A stretch of DNA of 41,038 nucleotides from Candidatus Colwellbacteria bacterium (GTDB taxonomy: Bacteria > Patescibacteriota > Minisyncoccia > UBA6257 > Colwellbacteraceae): the NCBI GenBank assembly GCA_030700125.1, contig JAUYKE010000002.1, positions 1-41,038 on the forward strand, in the 5' to 3' direction. Positions 5,603 to 36,586 of the stretch are shown here, piece by piece (the first letter of the stretch is position 1; every line of letters starts with the position of its first letter). The translations under genes were made by a program, and so were the position numbers. The notes under the pieces are model-generated. The model was not told the DNA's origin and made no database searches. It worked only from the letters and a program-made list of their open reading frames with translations.

Positions 5603-6371
5603 TTAATTCAACTAGGGCCTTTTCATAGTCGTCCTGTTTAATATTGGCATAATGCCAAAGATTATTATTTTCCATAAAGGAAACGCCTTTTCCCTTAATC
5701 GTGTCGCATATTATCATATTTGGAGATGAGTTAGATGCACTTTGGAGGGCGGATTTAATTTTTTCAAAGTTATGGCCGTCTACCCTTTGGACTGCCCAAC
5801 CGAAGGATTTAACTCGTTCATCCAGCGGCTCTATGTCCAGAATATCTTTAGTTCTTCCCATCGCCTGCAATCGATTGTTGTCTATCCAAGCGATTAAATT
5901 AGAAAGATTGTATTGTTTAGCAATTAAAATTGATTCCCACGTGGTTCCTATTTGCATTTCTCCATCACTTAGGAGAACATGGATTTTCCCCTCCTCGTTG
6001 TTTAGTTTCTTGCCTAGGGCAAAACCTATCCCGGCAGGCAGGCCGTAGCCCATACTGCCCCCGGCAAATTCCAATCCGAATTTCCCCCTCGGCTCTATAA
6101 GACCTATATATTCCTCTTCACCTGGACGGCAATAACGCTCTAAATCTTCTTTTGGGATCACCCCCTTCTCGGCCAGAAAATAATAAATTGAGGCTGCCGC
6201 CCATCCTTTGCTCAGGATAAACTTATCCTTTTCTAAATCCATCTTTTCGAATAAGGCGCTTAAGATATCAATGCAACTAAAGTTGCTGCCGATATGACTG
6301 CCTTGCGCCCGGTAGATCATTTCCAGCACCTTTTTCCTTGCTTCAGTGGCTATTTTTTTGTGATCAGTCAT
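5595..6371 (-). CDS. Transketolase-like subunit, N-terminal ThDP-binding domain
   Basis: SHIGSNFSCIDILSALF (transketolase His motif) and LLSDGEMQIGTTWES (GDG-type ThDP/Mg motif, variant). 8-nt overlap with the Pyr-domain subunit gene. Confidence 0.8.
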   Translation of the reverse strand: MTDHKKIATEARKKVLEMIYRAQGSHIGSNFSCIDILSALFEKMDLEKDKFILSKGWAAASIYYFLAEKGVIPKEDLERYCRPGEEEYIGLIEPRGKFGLEFAGGSMGYGLPAGIGFALGKKLNNEEGKIHVLLSDGEMQIGTTWESILIAKQYNLSNLIAWIDNNRLQAMGRTKDILDIEPLDERVKSFGWAVQRVDGHNFEKIKSALQSASNSSPNMIICDTIKGKGVSFMENNNLWHYANIKQDDYEKALVELNG

Positions 6372-7095: not shown

Positions 7096-7418
7096 GAAGG
7101 GAGAAATTGCTATGCTAGAGTTGACGGAATTTCAGGCCGAGGTGGTGAAGGTTATGGAGAAACAGGGCGTAACGAACGTTCGTTACGCCGGTAAGGCGAG
7201 GAATCGGCGTTGCCGAGAGGACAATAGGCAACTTTACAAATTCCGAGGGGAAGATACGGGTGGATTCCCCGTCGTTGCCTATGCTTGCGGGTCTTGTAAG
7301 CAAGTAGAGATGTGGAATGTCGGGAGCTTCAAGGGGCGGCGCAGTTTTCCTTTGACGTAACTGATGTTCTTTGACCCCAGGGCGCGAAATCCTAGTCGCC
7401 CTGGGGTTTTGCGTTTTT
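7096..7418 (+). ncRNA. Unclassified structured RNA candidate with its own intrinsic terminator
   Basis: Found in the 385-nt gap in the minus-strand operon. Closing helix 7098-7110/7341-7353 (12 pairs including 4 G-U, 1 mismatch; the G-U pairs work only on the + strand). 8-bp helix 7125-7132/7238-7245. Hairpins at 7166-7189 (24-nt perfect palindrome), 7209-7232, 7247-7270 and 7282-7306. Terminator at 7375-7418. The region looks locally purine/GC-enriched. The family was not identified. Confidence 0.4.
7375..7418 (+). terminator. Rho-independent terminator, plus-strand specific
   Basis: 10-bp stem ccccagggcg/cgccctgggg, 12-nt loop, then ttttgcgttttt. The 3' arm and T-tract lie inside the last codons of the minus-strand methyltransferase gene. 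On the minus strand no T-run follows. Confidence 0.55.
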
Positions 7419-8195
7419 GGAGAATACAAAAACTGCTTTGAAGGCGTATTTTTTGAGGGAAGGAAAGATTTTAAAAAGAATTTTATCAATACCATTTGCT
7501 ATTCGGCATGCTGCTCGGCTACCTGGGAGGCGTTGAAGTGGGATAGTGAGAAGAGAAACGAAATGAAAGAAGTGGATCTGCTCGAGATCAAGATATTTTT
7601 TAGCCAATCCAAGATCCCCCATTTTCATAATGTGAGCGGCAGCCCAAAAGGTTCTCACCCCACGCTTTTTATTGAGCCAGCGCTTGAGGTTTGCCAGAGG
7701 GTGGTGGCCGAGAGTCTCAATGCCGATCAGCAATCCGCCTGGTTTCAAAATGTGGTGGATTTCTTGTAGTCCTTTTTCAAGCTCAATTGAGGAGAAGGTT
7801 CCGCCGTCAAAAACTATATCAAAAAAATTATCAGGAAATTCAAGCGCCTCCGCATCCATTTTAGTAAATCTTACATTGCTTACTTCATACTTCATTCTTC
7901 GTTCCTCAGCAATTTTTAAAGATTCTTCGGAGAGGTCAATACCAATAACTTCTTTAGCGCCCATTTTAGCGATTTGAATTGAGTGCATGCCGTGACCACA
8001 ACCATAATCAAGCACTTTTTTGCCGGGAACATATCGCTTGAGAAGTTTATAGAGAAACTGATAACTCGACATTCTCATAACATTTATTGCTTCAATGTCG
8101 AGGAGAGCTAGCTTCGGATGAACGGTCACTTTTGCCTGCCACCCTCGGGCCAACTTATCGTAATGGTTAATTTCCCGCTCCTTTCTTAAGTCCAT
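7392..8195 (-). CDS. Class I SAM-dependent methyltransferase
   Basis: Motif I VLDYGCGHGMHS, acidic loop IGIDLSE, post-I/II FDIVFDGG. Confidence 0.8.
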   Translation of the reverse strand: MDLRKEREINHYDKLARGWQAKVTVHPKLALLDIEAINVMRMSSYQFLYKLLKRYVPGKKVLDYGCGHGMHSIQIAKMGAKEVIGIDLSEESLKIAEERRMKYEVSNVRFTKMDAEALEFPDNFFDIVFDGGTFSSIELEKGLQEIHHILKPGGLLIGIETLGHHPLANLKRWLNKKRGVRTFWAAAHIMKMGDLGLAKKYLDLEQIHFFHFVSLLTIPLQRLPGSRAACRIANGIDKILFKIFPSLKKYAFKAVFVFSKNAKPQGD

Positions 8196-9197
8196 TTATT
8201 TGCCGGGGGTTAGCAATCTAAATGCTCCGATAATTGAGCCTAAACCGTAAGCGAAGTGCCTCGCGGCGAAGGCGAGGATTAAAAAGGGAAAGAGCAGGAG
8301 GTTTTTTTCGCGAGCGATGATTTTTAGGGAGAAGTAGAGGGCTGCGGTGAAATAGAGGGTGAGAATTACAACGGATATCCAGATTAGCGGCTTCCAAAAA
8401 ATTGAGCCGACAGCAGTAGCTAGAGTGGTGGAAACAAATACCAGCGGCGCGAGATGTCGGGGTTTAAAAATAGGGGAGCCGAATTTAAGAGGCAAAATTG
8501 CCCAGATGCCATCCAGGAAGTTTCTCCGCCAGAAAGAAATTATCGTTTTTTGTTTGGGATAGTAGGTGAGAGCAATATCCGGCGCTAAAAGAATCTTGCC
8601 TCCGGACTGCGTTAGGCGGAGATTGAAGTCAAAATCCTGGCTACGGATTAATCTTTCGTTAAAAAGGCCGACTTTGCGAAAGACCTCTTTGCGGTAGCAG
8701 ATGCCGTAAGCCGTGTCAGCCAATCGGGGTTTGTCGCCGCCTTGCCTGAAAGAACCACCGCCGCCCAAGGGGGAACCAAGCACTAAAATAATTGCTTTGG
8801 CGGCGAGAGTTTGAGCGGCGGGAACATTATAAGTCACGCCGCCTACGGCGGCAGTTTTATATTCTTCGAGATAGCGAACACACTTAGAAATATAATCCGT
8901 CGGATAAATTGTGTGAGCATCGCTTTTGGTGATGAAGTCGCCTTTGGCATTTTTGACTCCGATGTTTAAAGAAATGGGAGTAAAACCCTGAGGATTATCA
9001 AAGAGTTTAATGCGATTGTCTTTTTTCGCATAAAATTCGACTATTTCCCGCGAGTTGTCCGAGCTATTACTATTGACTGCTAGGATTTCAATCCTCTCTT
9101 TGGGGTAGTCCTGTTTGACTAAGGACTGAAGAGCGCGGGCAACAAATTCAGCTTCATTATGATACGGAATAATAATTGACACTAAAGGCGATTTCAT
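8196..9197 (-). CDS. Family 2 (GT-A) glycosyltransferase with C-terminal TM helices
   Basis: [13 protein letters not shown]..., SDNS, TKSDAHT (DxH/DxD-type), then 3-4 hydrophobic helices. Confidence 0.8.
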
Positions 9198-9232
9198 GTT
9201 TGAATGGAAGGCGTTATTCTTTCAACTTATCT

Positions 9233-10231
9233 ATGAAAAAAGCCCTTATTACCGGAGCCACTGGCCAAGACGGAAGTTATCTAATCGAGCTCCTACTGGA
9301 CAAAGGATACGAGGTTCACGGAGTAGTTCGGCGGGCTTCATCGTCTAATACTTCCCGAATTGACCACCTTTATCAAGACCCGCACATAAATGGTGTAAAT
9401 TTCCATCTGCATTACGGAGATCTGGCTGATGGAAACGCCATTCGGAAACTGATTTATAAGATTCAGCCGGATGAAATTTATAATTTGGGTGCCCAGTCCG
9501 ATGTGGAGATCTCATTTAAAATTCCTGAATACACGCTTGATGTTACCGGGGTGGGAACATTGCGTCTGCTTGAAGCAATTCGAGAGTTTGAAGTCCAAAC
9601 TGGCAAGAAGGTAAAGTTCTATCAAGCCTCCAGCTCCGAAATGTTCGGTAACTCACCGGCCCCCCAGCATGAAAAAACAGCGTTTAATCCCCGAAGTCCA
9701 TATGGAGCGGCTAAGGTTCTTGCTCACGACATTACGAAGAATTACAGAGAAGCATACGGCCTTTTTGCCGTTTCGGGTATTTTGTTTAACCACGAATCGC
9801 CGAGGAGGGGTGAAAACTTTGTAACCAGGAAAATTACCCGCGGAGTTGCGAGAATTAAGGCGGGACTGGATAAGAAGCTTTACCTCGGGAATTTAGATGC
9901 TAAGCGGGACTGGGGATACGCGCCGGAGTATATGGAAGCGGCTTGGCTCATGCTTCAGCAGCCGGAACCGGATGATTATGTGATCGGCACGGGCGAGAGC
10001 CGTTCGGTTAAAGAGTTCGTGGGGGAGGCATTCAAGCATGCCGGAATGCCGGACTGGCAAAATTATGCTGAAGTTAATGACCCGCGCTACTTGCGGCCAT
10101 CTGAAGTTCACTATCTTCAAGCTGATCCAAGGAAAGCTAAAGAGAAATTTGGTTGGACAGCAAAGACGAAGTGGAATGACTTGGTAAAAATAATGGTTGA
10201 TCATGACTTGAAGGAATACGGGATTATTTAA
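9233..10231 (+). CDS. gmd: GDP-mannose 4,6-dehydratase
   Basis: [35 protein letters not shown] (the Ser/Glu catalytic pair is present), [27 protein letters not shown] chose the ATG at 9233 rather than the track TTG at 9176, which overlaps the divergent GT2 gene. Confidence 0.9.
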
Positions 10232-17661: not shown

Positions 17662-18717
17662 ATGTGCTATAATTTAACCGCTATGAGATTTACTAAGGAT
17701 ATCCTAATATTAGTGGGCGTGGTGGTTGGGATGGTGACTCTCACCGCTTCCGCTTCAGCCCGTTATGTGCCGGGCGGAGAAACCACTACTTATACTTATT
17801 ATTCAGCTACCAGCACTGCGGCACCTGACAGTACCAGCGCAACAACGACTACCCCCACCACAACTACTAGTACGCCAGAACCGACACCTGAAAGCACAAC
17901 AGCCACTCAACCATCAGCAATTATTGACAATCTTGCAGGTCAGCTTAATGCATTACTGGAACAATTAATTGCTTTACTTACTGTGCAGATACAAGATCTG
18001 CAGCAGCAATTGGTTGTTAAGCTAGGACAGCAGCCAACCGTTACTACCCCGACCCCGGCTGCCACTGCAACCACTACTGCCGAAACTGCTGTGACTTCCG
18101 CTGTTGCCGCAAATAAGCCCCCACGAGTTAATATTACTTTTCCTTATGGCGGACTTGAGCTTAGTGCTTCGGCCTCTACTGATGTTACCGCTTCAGCCGT
18201 GGATGATGACGGCACGATCAGCAAAGTAGAATTCTTTGATGGCGCAACCTTAATCGGAACCCATGCCGGCTCCATAGGTCCCTGGAGCGTGAGATGGAAC
18301 AATATATCAGCAGGCGAACATATTCTTACAGCCAAAGCTACTGATAACGGAGGAACTACAAGTACTTCGGGTCCGGTTACGACTACTTCGGCTCCGGTTA
18401 CCCTGACAGTTCAAGCTCTCGGCACGGGTATTGCCGGATTCCAAGATATACCTCCGGTGATTACTATCGCTACAACGATTACGGGTACTGCTTTGACAGC
18501 TACAGCTACAGTCACTACTTATGCAGGTAGCATTACTAATGTTGTGTGGTCTCGTGCTGCCTCGACTACGTCCGATGGGGCCTATGTGACTGATGCCACT
18601 TCGCCTTATAATGGTGCCGCGACTCTCGCAGTAGGTGTTCACACTATTTCAGCTATAGCCACTAACAGTCAGGGCACTACAGCTAGAACCGCGTCTACAA
18701 CGGTAACGACTAACTAA
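17662..18717 (+). CDS. Secreted/anchored Thr-rich protein with a coiled-coil segment and two Ig-like (Big_7-type) domains
   Basis: Signal/anchor MRFTKDILILVGVVVGMVTLTASASA. Low-complexity TTTTPTTTTSTPEPTPESTTAT. Heptad-like LAGQLNALLEQLIALLTVQIQDLQQQL. Two repeats of the pattern ...VEFFDGATLIG...W...GEHILTAKATDNGG.... The start may be 17683. Confidence 0.7.
   Translation: MCYNLTAMRFTKDILILVGVVVGMVTLTASASARYVPGGETTTYTYYSATSTAAPDSTSATTTTPTTTTSTPEPTPESTTATQPSAIIDNLAGQLNALLEQLIALLTVQIQDLQQQLVVKLGQQPTVTTPTPAATATTTAETAVTSAVAANKPPRVNITFPYGGLELSASASTDVTASAVDDDGTISKVEFFDGATLIGTHAGSIGPWSVRWNNISAGEHILTAKATDNGGTTSTSGPVTTTSAPVTLTVQALGTGIAGFQDIPPVITIATTITGTALTATATVTTYAGSITNVVWSRAASTTSDGAYVTDATSPYNGAATLAVGVHTISAIATNSQGTTARTASTTVTTN
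17665..17673 (+). promoter_or_regulatory. Extended -10 element (TGCTATAAT)
   Basis: Perfect TGnTATAAT 10 nt upstream of the ATG at 17683. It competes with the alternative start at 17662, which has the SD GGGAGGGAG at 17649-17657. Confidence 0.3.
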
Positions 18718-18740: not shown

Positions 18741-18780
18741 GAAAAACCGCCGTTAACAGCGGTTTTTCTTGTGTTGTTTT
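18741..18780. terminator. Hairpin between convergent genes (likely bidirectional terminator)
   Basis: gaaaaaccgc / gcggtttttc stem with an 8-nt loop, an A-run before and a T-run after. Overlaps the last codons of the minus-strand methyltransferase gene. Confidence 0.55.
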
Positions 18781-19562
18781 CCGATAAAGTTAAAACTCTC
18801 TTTATCCGGAGAATAGCCGGAAGAGATTTCCTCTAATCCATATTTTTTAAAAATTTTAGGATAGGGGTGGATGTAGCTTTGACTGGATAGCTTAATGCTT
18901 TTGATAAGTTCCGAGAGGTCGCGCTTTTGGGAGGCGTCGTTATAGACGACGTAACCCCTAAAGTGTTTTTGAATAATTCCGCAGACTTTCTCAAGATCAA
19001 CGGGATTAAGATAGGCAAAGATACCATAGCTGAAAATTAACCCGGCTTTTTTCAGAATATCTCGGTATTTTTCGATGTTCCTTACGTCATCAACAAAAAC
19101 CTTGATATGGGGATTATTTAGCGCTTTGGCGTGATCCACAATTTCCGGCGTAATATCCACTCCGTAGAGCTCTAAGTGGGGATATTTATTGGCGAGGTGC
19201 TCCAAATGACGGAGAAAACCGCACCCTAACTCAAAAACTGTTTTCACATTTTTGGTTTCAATAAGGTTCTCAATCTCTTTGAGGTAATATTCGGGGATGG
19301 GCGTCTGGTTGAAACTTGCGAGATATTTCGCACCCCACTCTTTCCAGAATTTATTGTTTAATTCTTCACTGTTTAAGCGGCGGGTTTTATAAAAGTAGTA
19401 ATCAAAAAAAGAGGTATTCAAGAGCTTTCGGAGTGGCAGAGTATTGTGGAATTGTTTCGGTTTGTAGCCAAAATAAAAAAGAGCGGCTCCAAGAGTTTTA
19501 GTGAGGAGACTTTTTAGGGGAGTGGGAAGGATACGATTCAGAAATTTTAGTAGAGATCTCAT
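18753..19562 (-). CDS. Class I SAM-dependent methyltransferase
   Basis: Motif I VFELGCGFLRHL, acidic loop YGVDITPE. 4-nt overlap with the sulfotransferase gene. Confidence 0.7.
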   Translation of the reverse strand: MRSLLKFLNRILPTPLKSLLTKTLGAALFYFGYKPKQFHNTLPLRKLLNTSFFDYYFYKTRRLNSEELNNKFWKEWGAKYLASFNQTPIPEYYLKEIENLIETKNVKTVFELGCGFLRHLEHLANKYPHLELYGVDITPEIVDHAKALNNPHIKVFVDDVRNIEKYRDILKKAGLIFSYGIFAYLNPVDLEKVCGIIQKHFRGYVVYNDASQKRDLSELIKSIKLSSQSYIHPYPKIFKKYGLEEISSGYSPDKESFNFIGKQHKKNRC

Positions 19563-20305
19563 TTAGTTCTGTAACCGAGGTGCTTCATGGTTTTTCCGGC
19601 TATGGCGTGAAAAATCTTAAGCTCAAGCCGGGAAAATTGATTTTTAAAGTCTCCGACAACACCTTTGCGGAAAGGCATACTTTTGCTTTCCTCTTTACCT
19701 TTCTCGCGGCCGGAGAGCTTATCAAAGGTAAAGTTATCAATTGCTTCTTGGATGAGCTTATCGCTGGCTTTGACTTCTAGGTAATTGAGGATTTCTTTCA
19801 GGGTTTCTACGGGGTGGGATGATACATTCTCATATTTTACCCGGTGGTATTTAATATCCGGTCTTTCGGTCCAGAGGCGGATGAATTTTTTCCATTTGTG
19901 AGCAGTCCAGGCGTAGCTCAAAGGGCGGATAGAGCTCAGCGTATAAAATAACCTTTCTTTTAAAGTTGTCGGTGGCTCAAGATTGACCAATTCTTTATAT
20001 CGGTAGTAGGCGGAAACGGCGATGTCGCGGGGGTCACGGGTAAGGAAAATAATCTTGTCGGTTAAGTTAACGTTTTTGGCCGGCCAGTTGTGGGTCTTAA
20101 TGACCATGGAGTAGGGGCTTTTGGGGCGATTGGGGAGACTGCCTCCAGTTAGGGAGATGACCCGTTCATCAGTTGTATAGAGCATGCCTTTTAGAAAATC
20201 GTAGGGCTCAATGTATTTGGCATTCAAAATATAGCAGAGCATGTAGCTTAGCCAGCCCTGTCCAGAACGGCCGTAGTCGGCTATAAGGATTACTTTTTCA
20301 GACAT
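19559..20305 (-). CDS. PAPS-dependent sulfotransferase
   Basis: 5'-PSB-like loop ADYGRSGQGWL and 3'-PB motif FLTRDPRDIAVSAYY. 8-nt overlap with cysC. Confidence 0.75.
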   Translation of the reverse strand: MSEKVILIADYGRSGQGWLSYMLCYILNAKYIEPYDFLKGMLYTTDERVISLTGGSLPNRPKSPYSMVIKTHNWPAKNVNLTDKIIFLTRDPRDIAVSAYYRYKELVNLEPPTTLKERLFYTLSSIRPLSYAWTAHKWKKFIRLWTERPDIKYHRVKYENVSSHPVETLKEILNYLEVKASDKLIQEAIDNFTFDKLSGREKGKEESKSMPFRKGVVGDFKNQFSRLELKIFHAIAGKTMKHLGYRTK

Positions 20306-20810
20306 TGGTAATCAGGTTGTATACTTTTTCGACGGCTTCTGCAACGGTGGTTTTGGAGGTGTCAATCACGAGGTCGGGGTCTTGAGGGCGTTCGTAGGGG
20401 GTATTGGGAGAGACACCGATTAGGTTGGAAATTTCGCCGGCTTTAGCTTTGGAATAAAGATTTTTAGTATCGCGTCTGATCAAAACTTCTATCGGACAAT
20501 CAATGAAAATTTCTTTGTAATCTTCGACGAAAATCTCGCGGGCTTTGTCGCGAGTTTCCTGGAAAGGAGAGATGACGGCGACGACGATAATGTCATAGTC
20601 GTTTTTGATAGATTCACAGTAATCAATAATTTTGTAATTGTTTTCTAGGATTGCCTCCCTGGAGAATTGATTAGTGGTACCGGCTTTGGCGCGGAAGCGA
20701 TCACCATCAACATGATGAACGGAATAGCCGTCATCGGCTAATTTCTTTTCAACTCTCTCGGCAATCGTGCTTTTACCGGAACCGGACATCCCGGTGAACC
20801 AGATAATCAT
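20298..20810 (-). CDS. cysC: Adenylyl-sulfate (APS) kinase
   Basis: IIWFTGMSGSGKSTIA P-loop, HVDGDRFR, VISPF. Typical 170-aa length. Confidence 0.9.
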   Translation of the reverse strand: MIIWFTGMSGSGKSTIAERVEKKLADDGYSVHHVDGDRFRAKAGTTNQFSREAILENNYKIIDYCESIKNDYDIIVVAVISPFQETRDKAREIFVEDYKEIFIDCPIEVLIRRDTKNLYSKAKAGEISNLIGVSPNTPYERPQDPDLVIDTSKTTVAEAVEKVYNLITNV

Positions 20811-23044
20811 TATTTCTCAAAAAGGGTAGTGGGGGATTTTTTGTACCAGTTTTCCAGCATGTCAGCGATCTCGGGGCGCATGATCTCGCGAGGAATCTTT
20901 TTGCCGCTTAAGAGATGCTTCCTGGCGGCGGTGCCGCTAATCAAAGTTCTCGATTTTACCGAGTGGCGGCATTTGTCTGTCACTTTTTTGCAGAGTTTAC
21001 AATAGTTGGCCGCTTCCAACATGATTGGGGTAATGCCAATATCTTTTATACCCAGATCATAAAAGATTTTTTGAGATGCATCGGGGGCGTAGAATTCGCC
21101 GACGCCGGTGTGGTCACGGCCAATAATAAAGTGGCTGCAGCCGAGATTCTTGCGGCAAAGGGCGGTAAAGACCGCTTCACGCGGTCCGCTGTAGCGGGAA
21201 TAAGTTTGGAAGGCGCCGACAACTACCGGGTAGGGCTCGTAGACACCATTCTCCACCATAATTTGATAGGCACCCACAATGGCATCCGGCTTGAAGTCAC
21301 CGGTTTTCTTGGGACCGACCACAGGACTGATAAAGAGGGCATCGGCGTTCACTCGCTTTAAGGCTTCTTTCTGAATAAATTCGTGGCCACGGTGAGGGAC
21401 GTTGCGAGTGTGAAAACCGACAATTGTTCGCCAATCAAAATTTTTAAATATTTGACGAGATTGTTTTGGAGTTAAAGTGTAAGAAGCAGGGAAAAGCCGC
21501 GGTTTTTTTAAAAGGAAAACTTCGCCGCTTACAATGTAGTCACCAAGCTTAAAGATACGGGCGACGCCCGGATGGACGTGGCTATCGGTGCCGAACCATC
21601 GTTTAGCGGTTTCCTCCAAGTCAATTTTTTGGATATCCGAAACCTCCAGCACGGCATAGCGTTCTTTATCACCTTTGCGACCAAGAGCAATGCGCTGGCC
21701 TTTCTTGAAACTAATTTCCTTTTTTGGAAGCTGGAAGATAATAGGCAGAGTCCAGACTACCCCATTGGGCAAGCGGTAATCTTCTAAGACAGAGTTCATT
21801 TCCCGCTTATTCATGAAGCCGCGGATAGGAGAATAAACACCATCAGTGATTTGAGTAACATCCAAGAGAATCTCTTGGCTTACATCAACTTTGTGGAGCT
21901 TTTTGGCTTGCGCCTGCATCGCTCCGTCGGCGTAATTCTGTACTAGCTTTCCGCCGTGGGGCTCAACCAATGTGAAAGAGTAGTCATAGAGATCACCGTC
22001 GTAGCGTTGGCTTTTCTCGCGGCGGTGGAGATAATCTTCGGTTTCCCTAATAACACCGGCGATCATGCGGACAGACTCAACGGGATACTTGCCAACAGCC
22101 GTTTCCGCAGCAAGAACTAAGCCATTTGCTCCGCTCATTAATGTGCTCGTGATGTCGTTGACTTCAGCTCGAGTGGGCTGGCCGGCGTGAATCATGGTTT
22201 CTAGAAGATTAGTGGCGACGTAAACTGGGGTATTGGTTTCTTTGCCGATGTTTAGAATGTGCCTTTGGGTGAGGGCGATTTCTTGAATAGGCACTTCGCG
22301 AGAGAGATCGCCTCGATCGATTAGTATGGCGTCGCTTGCTTTGGCAATCTCTTTCAGGTTTCGGATGCCGGTCATACTCTCAATCTTGCTGACAAGGGAG
22401 ATTGGATAAGGAAAAAAGGAGCGGAGCCGATCCACGCCCTCCTTACTAGTGGCAAAAGATAAGGCGTAGTTATTGATTTTGAATTTTTTGCCGATTTTAA
22501 AAGCGGCGAGATCTTTCTTTGTAAATGGAGGGAGCTTAATGGGCCTGTCCGTGGCAACACCTTTATTGGAGCCGATAACGCCGCCGGAGAGAGTCCGGGC
22601 AAGAACTTTACCGGACTTGATTTGGATGACTTGGACGATAACCGACCCAAAATCAATGTAGAGAAGATCGCCTTCCTGGAGAGTTTTCGCCGGATCAATC
22701 GGATAGAGAGGAATTTTGGTTTCAGTACCAAGCTCACTTGCCTTGACGAGAGAAACCAAGCTGTGAGTCTTAATCTCAAGTTTGCCGCCTCTCATTTTAC
22801 CGTTTCGGATTTGCGCGCCTTCAGAATCCAGCGAGAGCGGTTTTTTAGTCCATGACTGGATCTGCTTTATGAGGCGCGGCAGGTCTTTAGCTTGAGTGTG
22901 GGAGAGGTTGAGCCGGAAGAGATCAACGCCTGACTCGTCCATTTTTTGGATTATTCTCTTATCTGTGGAGGCAGGGCCGATAGTAGCTAAAACCTTGGTT
23001 AGCCTATTTGGTTTTTTCTTTGAGGGCATATTGAATGAGTTCAA
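20810..23044 (-). CDS. Fusion protein: pyruvate-kinase-like catalytic barrel (no C-terminal regulatory domain) + sulfate adenylyltransferase (ATP sulfurylase)
   Basis: N-terminal half: TKVLATIGPAS, FRLNLSH, LDSEGAQIR, VSKIES, DRGDLSREVP, PTRAEVNDI, LAAETAVGKYP. C-terminal half: VEPHGGKLV, HTRNVPHRGHEFI, GPREAVFTALCRKNLGCSHFIIGRDHTG. The start may be the second Met (23029). Confidence 0.8.
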   Translation of the reverse strand: MNSFNMPSKKKPNRLTKVLATIGPASTDKRIIQKMDESGVDLFRLNLSHTQAKDLPRLIKQIQSWTKKPLSLDSEGAQIRNGKMRGGKLEIKTHSLVSLVKASELGTETKIPLYPIDPAKTLQEGDLLYIDFGSVIVQVIQIKSGKVLARTLSGGVIGSNKGVATDRPIKLPPFTKKDLAAFKIGKKFKINNYALSFATSKEGVDRLRSFFPYPISLVSKIESMTGIRNLKEIAKASDAILIDRGDLSREVPIQEIALTQRHILNIGKETNTPVYVATNLLETMIHAGQPTRAEVNDITSTLMSGANGLVLAAETAVGKYPVESVRMIAGVIRETEDYLHRREKSQRYDGDLYDYSFTLVEPHGGKLVQNYADGAMQAQAKKLHKVDVSQEILLDVTQITDGVYSPIRGFMNKREMNSVLEDYRLPNGVVWTLPIIFQLPKKEISFKKGQRIALGRKGDKERYAVLEVSDIQKIDLEETAKRWFGTDSHVHPGVARIFKLGDYIVSGEVFLLKKPRLFPASYTLTPKQSRQIFKNFDWRTIVGFHTRNVPHRGHEFIQKEALKRVNADALFISPVVGPKKTGDFKPDAIVGAYQIMVENGVYEPYPVVVGAFQTYSRYSGPREAVFTALCRKNLGCSHFIIGRDHTGVGEFYAPDASQKIFYDLGIKDIGITPIMLEAANYCKLCKKVTDKCRHSVKSRTLISGTAARKHLLSGKKIPREIMRPEIADMLENWYKKSPTTLFEK

Positions 23045-24311
23045 TGGTATTTTTAAAACCTTCTTGGGTCAACTTGGGCATTTGCTTTTTGTACTTGCCG
23101 GATCTAATTAGTTTCAGTTTTTCTTCCAGCGTGATTTTACTTGTGACATAATCGATTCCTGGAAAATCTTTGTAATAATCTCCCATCAGTTCACGATTTG
23201 GATCGAGAGAAAGAATTGGCTTCTTTGGGTACTGGAGAGAGGCGGCAAAAAGAAGGGTGCTCAGTGATGGCGGGAGACCGATAATAACATCAGCTACGTT
23301 TAGGTAAGTCTCGGTCGGGCCATTTAGCTCCATTATTTTTACTTTGGGCGAGATTGATTCAAGCTCTTGCTTGAGAAATTCATAATTTTTGGTGGCTGGA
23401 TGAGTAGAAATAATAATTTTCCAATCCGGTAGGACGCTTTGAGCTAGCTGGAGAAGAGCTCTCCAACTGTTGAGCCGTCTTTCATTTGAGATAAAGAATA
23501 AATTTCTTCTGAAGCCTGCTTCGATATCTCCCGGGAGTAAAACAAGGGCAACTTTCTGCTTCTCTCTTGGCAGGGTTTGAAGCGGGGAAGAGAGAAAATT
23601 GTCAAAGAATTTTTTACTGGTAAGGAGGGGATGGGGAAGAATGATTAATTTCTTTTCAGGGACGCCATTTTTGGAATAGATGTCCCATTCTCTTTTATTG
23701 AAAACTGTTTGGTAGCTGGCATCTCTCATTCCAGACTCTCCTTTTAGGAGGATGTGGCTTGATTTACCGAAGAACGGTCCTTGAAAGTTTGCTAATGGTA
23801 AGAGCCAGTAATAAAAGAAATGGCCGATTAGCCTCCGTGTTTTAATGAGATTGAGCCGCAGGGGTAGGGGAAGAAACCTTGGAAGTCGGAGGTGCGCTTC
23901 GCCTAGAGTAATCCATTTAGCTGACTGGCCGGGAAAGGCGCTAAGAGCAGCTTGGATGGCAATGTTAACTGCTCCAACTTTCTTTGCTTCCCGGAAAAGA
24001 TACATCTCAAATAAATAGAGGTCGTTGGCGACAATGATCGCTTTGGGCTTGTACCGATGAATTACCTCTTTGGCCAAGCGGGACAGCTCCCGGTTCCTCC
24101 TTAATAAACTGGCTTTTTCTTCAGTATGCTGGTGAACGGGGATGATTTTTTCCAATCCGGGAAAAAGTTTTTTGTTTTTTACAATTTCCTCGGTAAATTG
24201 ATCAAGCTTTTCTGATAAAAGCACTACCGGATACTGGCTGGCCAATTCGTAGAGATGACCGATTAAAGTGGTGCGAAAGGAACGGGGAACAGAAGTGTAG
24301 AAAAGAATCAT
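23004..24311 (-). CDS. Hypothetical protein, possible GT-B-fold transferase with a TagF/KpsS/sialyltransferase-like HP motif
   Basis: 435-aa ORF in the operon. WKIIISTHPATK (strand + HP) and DVIIGLPPSLSTLLFAA resemble the C-terminal half of TagF/capsule/bacterial sialyltransferase-type enzymes. No confident family call. Confidence 0.4.
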   Translation of the reverse strand: MILFYTSVPRSFRTTLIGHLYELASQYPVVLLSEKLDQFTEEIVKNKKLFPGLEKIIPVHQHTEEKASLLRRNRELSRLAKEVIHRYKPKAIIVANDLYLFEMYLFREAKKVGAVNIAIQAALSAFPGQSAKWITLGEAHLRLPRFLPLPLRLNLIKTRRLIGHFFYYWLLPLANFQGPFFGKSSHILLKGESGMRDASYQTVFNKREWDIYSKNGVPEKKLIILPHPLLTSKKFFDNFLSSPLQTLPREKQKVALVLLPGDIEAGFRRNLFFISNERRLNSWRALLQLAQSVLPDWKIIISTHPATKNYEFLKQELESISPKVKIMELNGPTETYLNVADVIIGLPPSLSTLLFAASLQYPKKPILSLDPNRELMGDYYKDFPGIDYVTSKITLEEKLKLIRSGKYKKQMPKLTQEGFKNTIELIQYALKEKTK

Positions 24312-24320
24312 CTCCGACGC

Positions 24321-25820
24321 TTACGGGCGGAACCCCGACCCCTTTCGGGGGTCGGGGTTTATCTCCGACAGGACCTTTTCCAGAGAATCGCAAACGTAGA
24401 TGACCTCTTCTTCGGTTAGATTATTATGGAAGGGTAGGGCGATGGTCGCTCCGGACACTCTTTCGGTGATCGGAAAATCACCCGCTTTGTATCCAAATGT
24501 TCCGACGTAGAGTGGCTCAAGATGAATCGGTGGGAAGCGGTCGCGACAGTTCACACCTCTCTTCCCCAGCTTAGCGATAACCTCGTTTCTTTCTTGGCGG
24601 GAGAATTTTTCCGGGTTGAGCTGGATAACATAGACAAACCAGCTCATTTTATTGATTTCAGGGCCAACATAAGGAATGTGAACGTTCTTGATTTTTTTCA
24701 GACGTTCATTGTAAAGAGAGGCAATCTGGCTTCGCCTTGCTAAAATTTCTTCGATCCGTTTCATCTGGGTCACACCCAGGGCGGCGGAAAGTTCAGTCAT
24801 TCTGTAGTTGTAGCCGAGTGTTGTATAAGCAAGCGAGCCGGGTTTTTCTTCTCTCCCCTGATTTCTCATGCTCCGACAGAGTTCCGCCACTTCATCGTTA
24901 TTAGTAACAATTATCCCTCCTTCAGCAGTGGTGATCTGTTTATTGGGGGTAAAACCAAAAGCGGCGATATTACCGAAAGATCCGGCTTTTTTACCTTTGT
25001 ATTCAGAGCCGAGCGCCTCGCAGGCATCTTCAATCACAATCAAGTTATGCCTTTTGGCGATATCAAGAATTGGATCCATGTCGGCGACGTAGCCGAAGAT
25101 ATCAACGGGTAAAATTGCCTTTGTTCGAGGAGTAATTTTCTCTTCAATCTTTGCAGGGTCAATGCAGAGGGTTTTCTCGTCAATATCAACAAAGACCGGT
25201 TTGGCTCGCTCAAATAGGGGAGCATTAGCTGAAGCGATAAAACTGAAGGGAGTAGTAATTACCTCATTGCCGTCTTTAATTTCGAAAGCTCTCATAGCCA
25301 AGTGAAGTCCACTTGTACCGCTATTTACCGCTATTGCGTGCTTCATGCCAATGTAATCGGCGAAAACTGATTCGAACTCTTTGATCTTCGGACCAATAGT
25401 TAGATAAGGAGAGGAAAGAACTTCTTTAATGGCTTCTACCTCTTCGGAGGTTATGTCTTGCTTGGATAGGGGTACTTGTTTTAATTCGATAAGAAGCACT
25501 ACGTCCGCCATCGTCCCGTCCGGATTAACGATGGGAATCTGATAGATGCTTTTCTCGGTCATTGTTTTCAAGAGCTCCGAAGGGGAAGTGTCTTTGGTAG
25601 CGGTGATAAGACTGGTAATCATAATATCGGTGACGGAGGAATTGAGATTTTTGCCGGCCAGTACCGCTTCCCGGATATCGCCATCAGTTACGATGCCCGC
25701 TAATTTTTTCTGGTCGTCAATAACAAAAGCAGCCCGGATACCGCTTTGATAGATAGAATTTATCGCGTCCTTGATCGTTTTAGACCTATGGACGCAGATG
25801 ATATTGAGGTCTTTGGTCAT
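24321..25820 (-). CDS. CBS-domain pair fused to a DegT-family sugar aminotransferase
   Basis: Residues ~1-115 are CBS-like (GIRAAFVIDDQKKLAGIVTDGDIREAV; IYQIPIVNPDGTMADVV). The rest is DegT (AIAVNSGTSGLHLA, VIEDACEALGSEYKGK, FGFTPNKQITTAEGG). Confidence 0.8.
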   Translation of the reverse strand: MTKDLNIICVHRSKTIKDAINSIYQSGIRAAFVIDDQKKLAGIVTDGDIREAVLAGKNLNSSVTDIMITSLITATKDTSPSELLKTMTEKSIYQIPIVNPDGTMADVVLLIELKQVPLSKQDITSEEVEAIKEVLSSPYLTIGPKIKEFESVFADYIGMKHAIAVNSGTSGLHLAMRAFEIKDGNEVITTPFSFIASANAPLFERAKPVFVDIDEKTLCIDPAKIEEKITPRTKAILPVDIFGYVADMDPILDIAKRHNLIVIEDACEALGSEYKGKKAGSFGNIAAFGFTPNKQITTAEGGIIVTNNDEVAELCRSMRNQGREEKPGSLAYTTLGYNYRMTELSAALGVTQMKRIEEILARRSQIASLYNERLKKIKNVHIPYVGPEINKMSWFVYVIQLNPEKFSRQERNEVIAKLGKRGVNCRDRFPPIHLEPLYVGTFGYKAGDFPITERVSGATIALPFHNNLTEEEVIYVCDSLEKVLSEINPDPRKGSGFRP

Positions 25821-32969: not shown

Positions 32970-34436
32970 TTAGCTGGCAAGGATAGATTTCAAATCACTA
33001 AAGAGCTTTTCCTTGAGGAGAATAAGGGTACCGAAATAGATAATGGCGGCTAGAATTATTATGAGAAGGACATGGAGACCAATTTGGATAAGCCCCGCGA
33101 CTGCTAACCCCATAAGAAGGGTGGCAATAATTATTTTTTTGAGATTTCCGATAACACTAAAATTATTGATTTGCTTCATCTTGAACCAGATGGAGACGCT
33201 TGTAATTACTTGGGTGCCTACGGTAGCGATGGCGCAACCGGCGATGCCCAATATGGGGATTAGGACGATGTCTAAGAGGGCATTGACCGTTACTCCAACT
33301 GCGCCGACTTTAACGAGGAATTTCTGCTTGTTGTAAGCAAAGATGCCGTTATTAAGCATGCTCATCGGGAACATGGTGATAAGGGTGAGGGCTAAAATCT
33401 TCATTGTCAGAGTTGCGGGCAAATATTCGGAGCCGTAAAGCAAGTTGACTATCTCTTCTCCGGTAAGAAGAAAGCCGACAGTGAGGGGAAGGGCGAAAAG
33501 AAGAACCGCCACGATACTTTTCTCGTTGAGGAGGCGAAAGCGATTGTGGTCTTTCCCGGCGAACCGCGCTAATGCCGGGAAGATGCTGGCGGCAATGAGG
33601 GAGGGGATGGCATAGAGAAGGGTGACCGGTTTCTGAGCAGCGGCGAAAAGTCCTACGTTCGTTGCGTCAGTGAGCCACCCTAGAAGGACAATGTCGGTGT
33701 TGATCATCACTACTCCCAAAATGGCGGCTAAACTCATTGGGATAGAGGCGTTAAGAATCGGTCTAATAAGAGCCTTTTCAAAACGGGCTATAAATTGCCG
33801 AATGTAGCTACGGACGAGGTATAAGGCAAGAATTAGTCCGACGGCGGATCCTATGGCATAAGCCAAAGCAAGGCTCTCCGGACTACGGAACTTGGCAAGC
33901 AGATAGAATCCAGCGCCGATTAGAACTATTTGAGTGACAATGCTGACCAAAGCTTCACCTTCCATCTTTTCTTGAGCCCGGAAAATAGCTGAGCCAACGA
34001 GGCCGCGAATCATATCAAAGACGAAAACCAGAGCAACGATGATGACTAGCGTTTGAGAGATCGGAATTTTAGTAATTAAGGGCGCGCCGAAGATGATGAT
34101 AACGGCGCTCGCTAAAGCCAAGAGAGAAGTTAGGCCAAGGGCGGTGGAAAAGTAGCGGGCCCGAAGCTGAGGATTTTTAGCTCCTTCACGGACAACGATT
34201 GGCGACATTCCTAAGTCAGAGAAAGCGGTAAGTAAACTAGCGAGGCCCATCACATAAGAGAAAGTGCCAAAACCGGCAACGCCAAGAACTCGAGCGGCGT
34301 AAATAATAATCGCCGCTTTAAGTAGCCGCCCCACGATTTCGCTAGAAGAGAGCCAGAATGTATTTTTAAGAATGGTTTGCCGCCCGGTGCGGTTTTCGCT
34401 TAGAAAATTTTTAATACGGGAAATTCTATTTGGCAT
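32970..34436 (-). CDS. MOP-superfamily oligosaccharide flippase (Wzx/PST type), copy 1
   Basis: About 12-14 TM helices. N-terminal KNTFWLSSSEIVGRLL..YAARVLG. Collinear paralog of 35093..36586. Confidence 0.8.
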   Translation of the reverse strand: MPNRISRIKNFLSENRTGRQTILKNTFWLSSSEIVGRLLKAAIIIYAARVLGVAGFGTFSYVMGLASLLTAFSDLGMSPIVVREGAKNPQLRARYFSTALGLTSLLALASAVIIIFGAPLITKIPISQTLVIIVALVFVFDMIRGLVGSAIFRAQEKMEGEALVSIVTQIVLIGAGFYLLAKFRSPESLALAYAIGSAVGLILALYLVRSYIRQFIARFEKALIRPILNASIPMSLAAILGVVMINTDIVLLGWLTDATNVGLFAAAQKPVTLLYAIPSLIAASIFPALARFAGKDHNRFRLLNEKSIVAVLLFALPLTVGFLLTGEEIVNLLYGSEYLPATLTMKILALTLITMFPMSMLNNGIFAYNKQKFLVKVGAVGVTVNALLDIVLIPILGIAGCAIATVGTQVITSVSIWFKMKQINNFSVIGNLKKIIIATLLMGLAVAGLIQIGLHVLLIIILAAIIYFGTLILLKEKLFSDLKSILAS

Positions 34437-35092: not shown

Positions 35093-36586
35093 TTATTTTT
35101 TTGCGCTTTGGTTGCGGAGGGTTTCTCTGATGCGGACGACGACATTCTCACCGCTCCAAAGCAAGCTGCCAAAGTAACTGATGATTGCGAGCGGCATCAC
35201 TAGAAGGAAAGGCAAGCCCAGCCCGTAGCGGCTTAAAATAATGACTATGCTCATCATAAAAGCGGCGACAAGAATCAGCCGTATTTCCTTGATGACGGAG
35301 AAGTCATTAATCTTCTTCATCTTCCGCCAGATTAAGGTGTTTATAATAAGCTGGGTAATGAATACCGCCCAGGCGGCGCCTATGATGCCCCAGCGAGGAA
35401 TAAGGAACAAACTTAATCCGATATTAATTAAAAGACCGATAGCCCAGAGGGGAACCAATTCGTTTTGCCGGTTATAGGCGAAGATGGCATTGATAATCAT
35501 GCCGACCGGGAAAACGGCGAGAAGAGTAAGGGCAAGAATTCTCAAAGGTGCGGCCGAAGAGATATATTCGCTCCCATAAAATAATTTAACAATCTCATCA
35601 GCCGTGAGAAAAATCCCGACAGTTACGGGAATAGCAAAAAGAAGGACTAAGCCCAGTCCTTTCTCTAAAACGTAGCGGAAGCGAACGTTATCTTTGTTTG
35701 CGAGACGTGCCAAAACTGGGAAGAAAGCGCCAGTCACAAGCGCTGGTAAAAGATAGAGGAAAGCAATCGGTTTTTGAGCGGCAGCGTAGAGGCCCACCTC
35801 CGCCGCTTCCCGGAACCAACCGATGATGACAGTATCGATGTTGACGATGAGCACTCCGAAGACAGCGGCTAAGCTAAGGGGCCAGGCGGCACTCAGAATT
35901 GGTTTAAGCAATTTCTTGTCGAAACTTGAAAAAAGATTTTTAATGTCTTGTCGGAGAATATACATAGTGACTAAGAGTCCTGCGCCGGCACCGATGGCGT
36001 AAGCCGCTGCCAGAGATTCTGGAGAAGTAATCATAAGGAGAGCAATGAATCCAGCAGCCACGATAATGGCTTGAGTAATGATGTTAACGAAGGCCTCTAG
36101 TTCCATCCGCTCCACCGCCCTAAAGAGAGAAGCGCCGAAGCGTCTTAAGGAGTCAAAGATAAAAAGAAAGCCGACTAAGTAAACTAGGGTTTGAGAAACT
36201 TGGATGTTCGTGATGCGGGGGGCAAGGAAAACAATGATAAGAAAACTTAAGACGGTGAGAATAAATTTAAATAGGAAAGCAGTGGAGAAATATTTGTCTT
36301 TGAGTTCCGGTCTTTTCGTTACCTCACGAATGACTACCGAGCTTAAGCCGACATCAGAAAAGACGGTGAGGATTGCTGCTAAGCTAGTGAGGTAGGAAAA
36401 AGCGCCCCAGCCGGCCGCCCCCAAGACGCGAGCAGCATAGACAACAATAAAAAGCCGAAGGATTCGGCCGGCTATCTCGCCAAAGGAAAGCCAAAAAGTA
36501 TTTTTGGTGACGGTCTGCCTAACGCCTTGATTCTCAAAGAGGAAGGCCTTCAATTGGCGCCAACGTGTGTGTTTGCTAGGCGGCAT
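35093..36586 (-). CDS. MOP-superfamily oligosaccharide flippase (Wzx/PST type), copy 2
   Basis: Same architecture and many identical blocks as copy 1 (KNTFWLSFGEIAGRIL..YAARVLG, YAAAQKP, FPVLARLA, LFYGSEY). Confidence 0.8.
   Translation of the reverse strand: MPPSKHTRWRQLKAFLFENQGVRQTVTKNTFWLSFGEIAGRILRLFIVVYAARVLGAAGWGAFSYLTSLAAILTVFSDVGLSSVVIREVTKRPELKDKYFSTAFLFKFILTVLSFLIIVFLAPRITNIQVSQTLVYLVGFLFIFDSLRRFGASLFRAVERMELEAFVNIITQAIIVAAGFIALLMITSPESLAAAYAIGAGAGLLVTMYILRQDIKNLFSSFDKKLLKPILSAAWPLSLAAVFGVLIVNIDTVIIGWFREAAEVGLYAAAQKPIAFLYLLPALVTGAFFPVLARLANKDNVRFRYVLEKGLGLVLLFAIPVTVGIFLTADEIVKLFYGSEYISSAAPLRILALTLLAVFPVGMIINAIFAYNRQNELVPLWAIGLLINIGLSLFLIPRWGIIGAAWAVFITQLIINTLIWRKMKKINDFSVIKEIRLILVAAFMMSIVIILSRYGLGLPFLLVMPLAIISYFGSLLWSGENVVVRIRETLRNQSAKK

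Follow-up and report, generated by a model that had tools for sequence, protein, structure and literature searches.

Positions 1 to 41,038 of contig JAUYKE010000002.1 from a Candidatus Colwellbacteria genome (the whole stretch of DNA analyzed, here called the window) carry on the minus strand a gene in which sequence of the pyruvate kinase (PK) family is joined to sequence of the ATP sulfurylase (ATPS) family. The gene lies in a continuous open reading frame (ORF) spanning positions 20810 to 23044, which yields 744 amino acids (aa) from an alternative TTG start at 23044. Translation of the fusion probably starts at the ATG at 23029, five codons after the TTG. A Pfam search of the 744-aa ORF detected three domains only (PK, PUA_2, and ATP-sulfurylase; Table 1), and in this search the PK C-terminal domain, PK_C (PF02887), was absent from the fusion protein. 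The PF00224 match covers model positions 2 to 328 of 328, with a score of 199 bits and an E value of 1e-58. A first-pass annotation made from the sequence alone had proposed that one chain contains both a PK barrel and a complete ATPS, and the Pfam, PDB, and Foldseek searches agree with this proposal. The PK and ATPS motifs quoted in that annotation are all present in the translation. It had also stated that the C-terminal allosteric domain of PK is missing, which was borne out both by the lack of PF02887 and by a negative phmmer search with the C domain of human PKM2.

Table 1. Coordinates of the fusion gene, its domains, and the genes that overlap or follow it in the window (APS, adenosine 5'-phosphosulfate; PAPS, 3'-phosphoadenosine 5'-phosphosulfate; SAM, S-adenosylmethionine)
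Feature	Positions	Strand	Residues or remark	Basis
PK-barrel/ATP-sulfurylase fusion gene	20810..23029	-	739 aa from the ATG at 23029	Gene-caller version (P0001); Pfam architecture
PK A+B barrel	22070..23005	-	aa 14-325 of the 744-aa ORF	PF00224
Linker (last PK helix and a short flexible stretch)	21965..22069	-	aa 326-360	No Pfam domain
PUA_2, N-terminal domain of ATP sulfurylase	21506..21964	-	aa 361-513	PF14306, E = 2e-39
ATP-sulfurylase catalytic domain	20849..21484	-	aa 521-732	PF01747, E = 5e-68
APS kinase (CysC type)	20298..20810	-		PF01583, E = 6e-41; TIGR00455, 156.9 against a cutoff of 138.7
PAPS-dependent sulfotransferase	19559..20305	-		PF00685 (Sulfotransfer_1), E = 4e-24
SAM-dependent methyltransferase	18753..19562	-	Final gene of the coupled run	Methyltransf_25/12/31
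Conserved 435-aa protein	23004..24311	-	Overlaps the start of the fusion

Comparison with solved structures gave the same division of the chain. The N-terminal half matched PDB pyruvate kinases with E values of 1e-43 to 1e-49, and these matches were confined to the A and B domains. The C-terminal half matched the ATP sulfurylases of Methanothermococcus thermolithotrophicus (8a8d, E = 6e-88) and Thermus thermophilus (1v47, E = 2e-74). An AlphaFold2 model of the fusion, with 68 homologues as input, reached a pLDDT (predicted local distance difference test) of 90.9 and a pTM (predicted template modeling score) of 0.82, and pLDDT fell below 50 solely at residues 345 to 350 (739-aa numbering). When this model was searched with Foldseek, the C-terminal half superposed on 8a8d with a template modeling (TM) score of 0.93 and a root mean square deviation (rmsd) of 2.0 Å (TM, 0.92 to 0.93 across 8a8d and 1v47), and the N-terminal half superposed on PKM2 and PykF with an rmsd of ~2.7 Å over ~340 columns. 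No PDB chain among the Foldseek matches spanned both halves. Against the NCBIfam models of sulfate adenylyltransferase, the C-terminal half scored above the cutoff of NF003166 (389.4 versus 387) and slightly below that of TIGR00339 (312 versus 323). The predicted product is a full PK A+B barrel that lacks the C-terminal allosteric domain, followed by a complete Sat-type ATP sulfurylase.

The architecture is widespread. A collection of 5.8 billion proteins was searched and the best 120 clusters were taken; PK, PUA_2, and ATPS domains were found together in 120 of these 120 clusters, at 45 to 90% identity. Their source names include phyla of the candidate phyla radiation (CPR), Bacteroidetes, Ignavibacteria, Bacteriovoracia, and one metagenome-assembled genome of Promethearchaeota. 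A pattern scan of metagenome contigs confirmed the fusion architecture in at least 588 stretches, whose samples included groundwater, marine, and soil material; the phyletic range given here is based on source names and sample types and is not a species-level survey. The nearest relatives (91% and 78% identity) were recovered from groundwater metagenomes and share the gene order of the window, and the named relatives at 55 to 57% identity belong to Candidatus Parcubacteria, Staskawiczbacteria, and Nealsonbacteria. These relatives point to a probable CPR/Patescibacteria origin of the window. In a scan of genome contigs with the single window protein, the sole match was a Methanosarcinales PK at 28% identity. 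Members of the family are currently annotated only as "pyruvate kinase" or "sulfate adenylyltransferase." The first-pass annotation had named no characterized PK fusion of ATPS. This stands insofar as the full-text literature, in a search whose coverage excluded most subscription journals, gave no description, functional or otherwise, of a PK-ATPS fusion; the fusion may have been noted elsewhere, for instance in domain-architecture databases. The architecture itself is common across sequence databases. One paper on Nitrospinota was checked as a possible description of the fusion and proved to be unrelated. The family is large, extends to marine lineages and some viral contigs, is apparently unstudied, and lies in sugar-sulfation gene clusters.

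The same data bear on whether the fusion was created by an assembly error or a frameshift that joined two genes, which is extremely improbable. The ORF is continuous in the window and has a confident AlphaFold2 model, the architecture is common to all of the best 120 clusters and the metagenome stretches, and near-identical loci occur in independent assemblies, four of which (L002, L003, L008, and L009) contain the continuous fusion. The junction, which the first-pass annotation had taken as real, is accordingly upheld. Nothing in favor of an artifact was found, but degraded or error-bearing copies of the gene do exist, as at locus L089.

The L089 copy (positions 7380 to 10208 of its AT-rich contig; 32% GC) was considered as a natural split of the gene into PK and ATPS, since a gene caller reports a separate "PK" and "ATPS" there. 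This candidate was rejected: the DNA shows a continuous fusion with a single in-frame TAA between the two halves, located at position 9063 and immediately behind the motif PHGGELV. The upstream APS kinase gene is itself broken by frameshifts. The L089 locus is decaying, or its assembly is of low quality, and it was left out of the evidence on fission.

To compare the barrel with canonical PK, the 120 homologues were aligned to human PKM2, which served as the numbering reference; the catalytic positions were checked against their known numbers. Eleven positions were invariant in 120 of 120 homologues: R73, N75, S77, H78, D113, R120, K270, E272, D296, T328, and E364. K207 was kept in 119, and the nucleotide-side residues T50, G52, and P53 were each kept in 115. 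The catalytic lysine, the Mg2+ ligands (Glu and Asp), the Thr proton relay, the K+ site, and the phosphate-binding Arg and Lys residues are all present in the fusion barrel. The PF00224 match and these invariant residues bear out the earlier assignment of the N-terminal half to the PK family. The A+B fold and the catalytic, K+, and Mg2+ residues are thus common to the fusion barrel and canonical PKs (PykF, PKM, and Geobacillus PK). The fusion barrel differs from these enzymes in lacking the C-terminal domain, in carrying E115, Q118, F178, D293, N329, A362, A363, and I or V at 367, and in having sulfation rather than glycolysis as its genomic context.

From these differences we defined an "EQDNAA" subfamily, consisting of PK barrels without PK_C that have an intact catalytic core and E115, Q118, D293, N329, A362, and A363. 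The window protein carries the full signature. When 1.84 billion representatives (clusters at 50% identity) were searched exhaustively by HMMER with the PK half as the query, the ~125 best clusters, all above 200 bits, bore the signature or a variant of it differing at one or two residues. The exact signature was found in 92 aligned representative barrels, of which 60 were fused to ATPS, 1 was fused to APS kinase, 1 was part of a triple fusion, and 1 was the window's own; the other 29 had no detected ATPS, APS kinase, or PK_C partner. Roughly 25 further barrels deviated from the signature at one or two positions. Canonical PKs with PK_C first appeared at ~190 bits and had K118, A293, Q or E at 329, and S362. 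When the PKM2 C domain was used as a phmmer query, it was found in the canonical PKs of this hit list and in none of the fusion subfamily. As judged from sequence, the PK half is a distinct subfamily and not an ordinary PK.

Within the signature subfamily, PK-ATPS is the majority architecture, and other partners recur. Triple fusions of PK, ATPS, and APS kinase were found in P0038, P0039, P0094, P0115, P0198, P0213, and P0254. Two proteins join the barrel to APS kinase without ATPS: P0178, which is encoded in a polysaccharide locus, and P0237, whose gene lies downstream of sulfotransferase and methyltransferase genes in two independent assemblies. P0138 has a PK-CBS architecture, and P0259 (1151 aa) combines a type I phosphodiesterase/nucleotide pyrophosphatase domain with the PK barrel, PUA_2, and ATPS. 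The barrel also stands alone on three viral (IMG/VR) contigs, at positions 6001 to 6978 of L090, 4581 to 5516 of L091, and 501 to 1238 of L092. The L090 barrel lies among SbcC/SbcD-like, radical-SAM, and peptide deformylase genes, and the L091 barrel directly follows a sulfotransferase. The viral barrels share the EQDNAA signature, which is partly lost in the short L092 copy, and all belong to phrog_25828, annotated as "unknown function." A PK-PK-adenylate kinase protein (P0258, 1051 aa) was considered as a sign that PK barrels serve as ATP-regeneration modules in general; both barrels carry the canonical signature, and the protein was kept as a loose precedent only.

The ATPS half carries marks of its own. 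Its catalytic domain contains HTRNVPHRGH, GRDHTG, and a Cys-x2-Cys...Cys-x-His cluster. The QxRN motif reads HTRN in 120 of 120 homologues, so that the change from Q to H is invariant, and GRDHAG reads GRDHTG in 115 of 120. The R and N of the first motif, both His residues, GRDH, and PHGG are invariant in the 120 homologues. The His of HTRN is encoded at window positions 21425 to 21427. The two closest solved relatives, the stand-alone enzymes 8a8d and 1v47, have the same PUA_2 and catalytic layout, and the C-terminal Cys/His cluster is retained; they differ in having QTRN and GRDHAG and in lacking the N-terminal PK barrel. HTRN/GRDHTG appears to be the lineage mark of the PK-associated ATPS. 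The C-terminal half is predicted to be a Sat-type ATP sulfurylase, and its putative activity is supported by genomic context, namely the adjoining APS kinase and sulfotransferases.

The fusion gene heads a run of overlapping genes. Its TAA stop codon overlaps the ATG of the APS kinase gene by 1 nucleotide (nt) (TAATG), and the APS kinase gene overlaps the sulfotransferase gene by 8 nt; both overlaps had been reported in the first-pass annotation and were read in the DNA. The sulfotransferase and methyltransferase genes overlap by 4 nt. The fusion is translationally coupled to the APS kinase, the sulfotransferase, and the methyltransferase. On the other side, the gene for the 435-aa protein overlaps the start of the fusion by 26 nt, counted from the ATG, or by 41 nt, counted from the TTG. 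This protein matched no Pfam family at an E value of 0.01 and is a syntenic partner of the PAPS module in this lineage (432 aa in L002 and L003 and 439 aa in L008). The gene order of the window up to the methyltransferase is also found in L002 and L004. No gene of the operon received a CysD-like or CysN-like annotation from Pfam.

These genes are embedded in a glycan locus. Its annotated genes encode NeuB, a UDP-GlcNAc 2-epimerase, a cytidylyltransferase of the CMP-sugar type, and a hexapeptide acyltransferase; further genes encode a CBS-DegT aminotransferase, a class III aminotransferase, a GFO/IDH oxidoreductase, a UDP-sugar dehydrogenase, a GDP-mannose-dehydratase-like enzyme, a glycosyltransferase, C- and O-methyltransferases, and two Wzx-type flippases. 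The surrounding locus is, by its predicted gene products, a nonulosonic acid/polysaccharide pathway with sulfation and methylation steps.

A similar association is seen in relatives. APS kinase directly adjoins the fusion in a close (Parcubacteria-like) relative and in Staskawiczbacteria and Bacteroidota loci. It was present in the flank of 39 of 82 loci, many of which are short flanked, and was adjacent in 35. When the count was confined to the 24 loci whose flanks reach 3 kb or more in each direction, APS kinase was in the flank of 17 and adjacent in 15, and either APS kinase or a sulfotransferase was found in 20. Among 124 neighbor genes of loci in which APS kinase was not detected, the commonest Pfam families were Sulfotransfer_1 (10 genes) and Sulfotransfer_3 (9 genes), followed by polysaccharide genes and TauE-type permeases.

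We propose, with a probability of roughly 0.6, that the barrel uses phosphoenolpyruvate (PEP) to recycle ADP to ATP for PAPS synthesis and so serves the sulfotransferase of the surface-glycan locus. The ATPS half would convert ATP and sulfate to APS and pyrophosphate (PPi), and the coupled APS kinase would convert APS and ATP to PAPS and ADP. The PK barrel would then move the phosphoryl group of PEP onto the ADP released by APS kinase, for a net reaction of sulfate + ATP + PEP -> PAPS + PPi + pyruvate. In this way, ADP would be removed and ATP held high where it is used, the dead-end E-ADP-APS inhibition of APS kinase would be relieved, and the free energy of PEP would be added to an otherwise unfavorable sulfate activation. 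The roles of PEP as the donor and ADP as the acceptor, and kinetic and thermodynamic coupling as the benefit, are what we infer from comparison with known enzymes.

Three lines of evidence make PEP-driven ADP recycling the best-supported reading: the invariant phosphoryl-transfer and K+/Mg2+ residues, the fusions to APS kinase, and published PAPS biocatalysis. Since APS kinase releases ADP, fusion of the barrel to this enzyme is the strongest comparative argument for ADP recycling. ADP traps APS kinase in a dead-end E-ADP-APS complex, and PAPS could be obtained in vitro only when PK and PEP regenerated ATP; when they were left out, ADP built up and PAPS was "practically missing" (PMC9885120). 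That laboratory system uses exactly the proposed chemistry, with PK recycling the ADP of APS kinase. It is an engineered mix of separate commercial enzymes, whereas the system proposed here would be natural and fused and would use a dedicated PK subfamily. PEP-driven ATP regeneration had already been suggested in the first-pass annotation, and the comparative data favor it over the other readings considered; what has to be amended is the nature of the barrel, which appears to form a separate subfamily and is not an ordinary PK. Loss of the allosteric/tetramerization C domain fits an enzyme outside glycolytic control.

Several observations weigh against this proposal. The N-terminal half scored under the NCBIfam equivalog cutoffs for PK (TIGR01064, 261 versus 306.4; NF004491, 276 versus 432). 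In PKM2 numbering, the family carries the substitutions E118Q, A293D, Q329N, G363A, and K367I/V in 120 of 120 homologues, S362A and D178F in 119, K115E in 114, and Y83D in 97. Positions E118, A293, Q329, S362, K367, and Y83 line the active-site pocket of PKM2 in docking tables (PMC11207066). Given these pocket substitutions, the donor and acceptor specificity may differ from PEP and ADP. The placement of D293 beside the Mg2+-binding D296, together with A362, I/V367, and F178, suggests changed cation, proton-relay, or nucleotide-ribose recognition; the substitutions might also be no more than a consequence of lost allostery and of the fit to a new oligomer. In addition, ~30% of the well-flanked loci have no APS kinase nearby, and two stand-alone barrels have other neighbors, P0148 adjoining a Wzt-type ABC ATPase and P0167 following a sulfatase-family gene. 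Since some barrels stand alone, away from any visible ATPS or APS kinase gene, strictly local ADP recycling is not obligatory.

Some of these observations would also be expected if the barrel performed a sulfation-specific phosphoryl transfer other than ADP to ATP, or used a donor other than PEP, with its pocket remodeled for a new substrate. Such a transfer might be PEP-dependent phosphorylation of APS, as a second route to PAPS, or might act on nucleotides derived from 3'-phosphoadenosine 5'-phosphate (PAP) or on PPi. The invariant and near-invariant changes at positions that in several cases line the PKM2 pocket, the well-flanked loci with no visible APS kinase, the lone barrel beside a sulfotransferase on a viral contig, and the co-evolving ATPS half with its own invariant Q-to-H change are all in line with this explanation. 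We nonetheless consider it unlikely, as the phosphoryl-transfer apparatus and the nucleotide side are kept (R73, N75, H78, R120, K207, T50, G52, and P53), and a barrel that itself acted as an APS kinase would be redundant in a fusion to a bona fide APS kinase. We know of no precedent for PK chemistry on APS, PAP-derived nucleotides, or PPi. It is similarly doubtful that the barrel represents a sulfation-dedicated branch of the PK family with a noncanonical reaction, be it conversion of APS to PAPS, action on a PAP-derived species, or PPi removal. If this were true, PK-ATPS would generate PAPS on its own or by a new mechanism, and the barrels that stand alone, those on viral contigs among them, would form a new class of accessory enzymes for sulfation.

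The intact catalytic residues, and the label "pyruvate kinase" given to these proteins in some sources, are also compatible with a housekeeping glycolytic PK that was fused to ATPS for coexpression, with the two halves functionally uncoupled. CPR genomes are small and sometimes contain unusual versions of central enzymes, which can be counted for this explanation. It is made quite unlikely by the separate position of the subfamily (>200 bits, against ~190 for canonical PKs) with a signature of its own, by the missing regulatory C domain, and by the genomic context, which is always a sulfation or polysaccharide locus, in Bacteroidota, Ignavibacteria, and Bacteriovoracia as well. Moreover, the fusion to APS kinase is recurrent, and repeated pathway-specific fusion is unexpected for a housekeeping enzyme. 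Very unlikely, too, is a regulatory or sensor domain that binds PEP or adenine nucleotides and tunes ATPS with little or no turnover. Fungal ATP sulfurylase contains a dead APS-kinase-like domain that senses PAPS, which shows that a kinase-like domain can be recruited for allosteric control; PDB entries 1i2d and 1m8p are among the matches of the C-terminal half. Replacement of the PK C domain by ATPS in an intimate fusion (pTM, 0.82) points in the same direction. Degenerate sensor domains, however, normally lose their catalytic residues, whereas here the catalytic and metal ligands are invariant down to 45% identity, and the barrel also occurs alone and with other partners.

If PEP-driven ADP recycling is correct, the fusion can be set beside other ways of driving sulfate activation. 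Bifunctional PAPS synthase (Aquifex aeolicus 2gks and human PAPSS1/2) is likewise a fusion on a Sat-type ATPS that improves PAPS production. Chains of this enzyme match the ATPS half of the window protein, and some members of the PK family are PK-ATPS-APS kinase triple fusions. The window system differs from it in that the APS kinase is encoded by a separate, overlapping gene and the fused partner is a PK barrel. None of the solved ATPS structures that were matched has a PK barrel as its partner. CysDN is a GTPase-coupled ATP sulfurylase in which CysD has a PAPS-reductase-like fold and the coupling is conformational, via GTP hydrolysis. The logic would be alike, in that each system pays for sulfate activation with an additional energy-rich compound. 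The fold of CysD is unrelated, however, and in the fusion PEP would exert the coupling by way of the ADP/ATP pool.

The activation of sulfate is thermodynamically unfavorable, and three solutions are known: coupling to the CysN GTPase, fusion to APS kinase, and fusion to pyrophosphatase. If the proposed role is true, the natural PK fusion, in which PEP would regenerate ATP, would add a fourth solution that mirrors PAPS biocatalysis engineered by hand. A compact PK-ATPS(-APS kinase) protein could be useful as a one-protein PAPS generator for enzymatic sulfation. The fusion genes may also mislead metabolic reconstructions, in which they could be mistaken for glycolytic PK or for a sign of assimilatory or dissimilatory sulfate metabolism. 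The predicted content of the locus implies that CPR-like bacteria may make sulfated, methylated nonulosonic acid glycans, which bear on the interaction of these bacteria, as episymbionts, with their hosts.

Further features of the glycan loci were noted. In this part of the glycan operon, which runs on the minus strand, the gene at positions 17662 to 18717 is the only one on the plus strand. Its 351-aa product has a hydrophobic segment at the N terminus, long mucin-like tracts rich in Thr, Ser, Pro, and Ala, and a Big_7 Ig domain; this protein could be a surface target of the O-glycosylation and sulfation encoded by the surrounding genes. The sugar aminotransferase of the DegT/DnrJ type (positions 24321 to 25820, minus strand; 499 aa) has an N-terminal CBS pair, and this fusion is kept in L002 and L008. 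The occurrence of CBS domains both on this aminotransferase and on the PK-like barrel of P0138 hints at adenine-nucleotide sensing in glycan pathways. Loci of the Bacteroidota type (L006, positions 8659 to 9432, and L014, positions 1 to 783) have a CysQ-like Inositol_P phosphatase gene just upstream of the fusion. These loci encode a candidate PAP removal enzyme, and the window operon, by its annotations, does not. The two genes for Wzx/MurJ-type flippases in the window lie near each other on the minus strand (positions 32970 to 34436 and 35093 to 36586), and the same flippase duplication is found in L004, directly upstream of the fusion gene.

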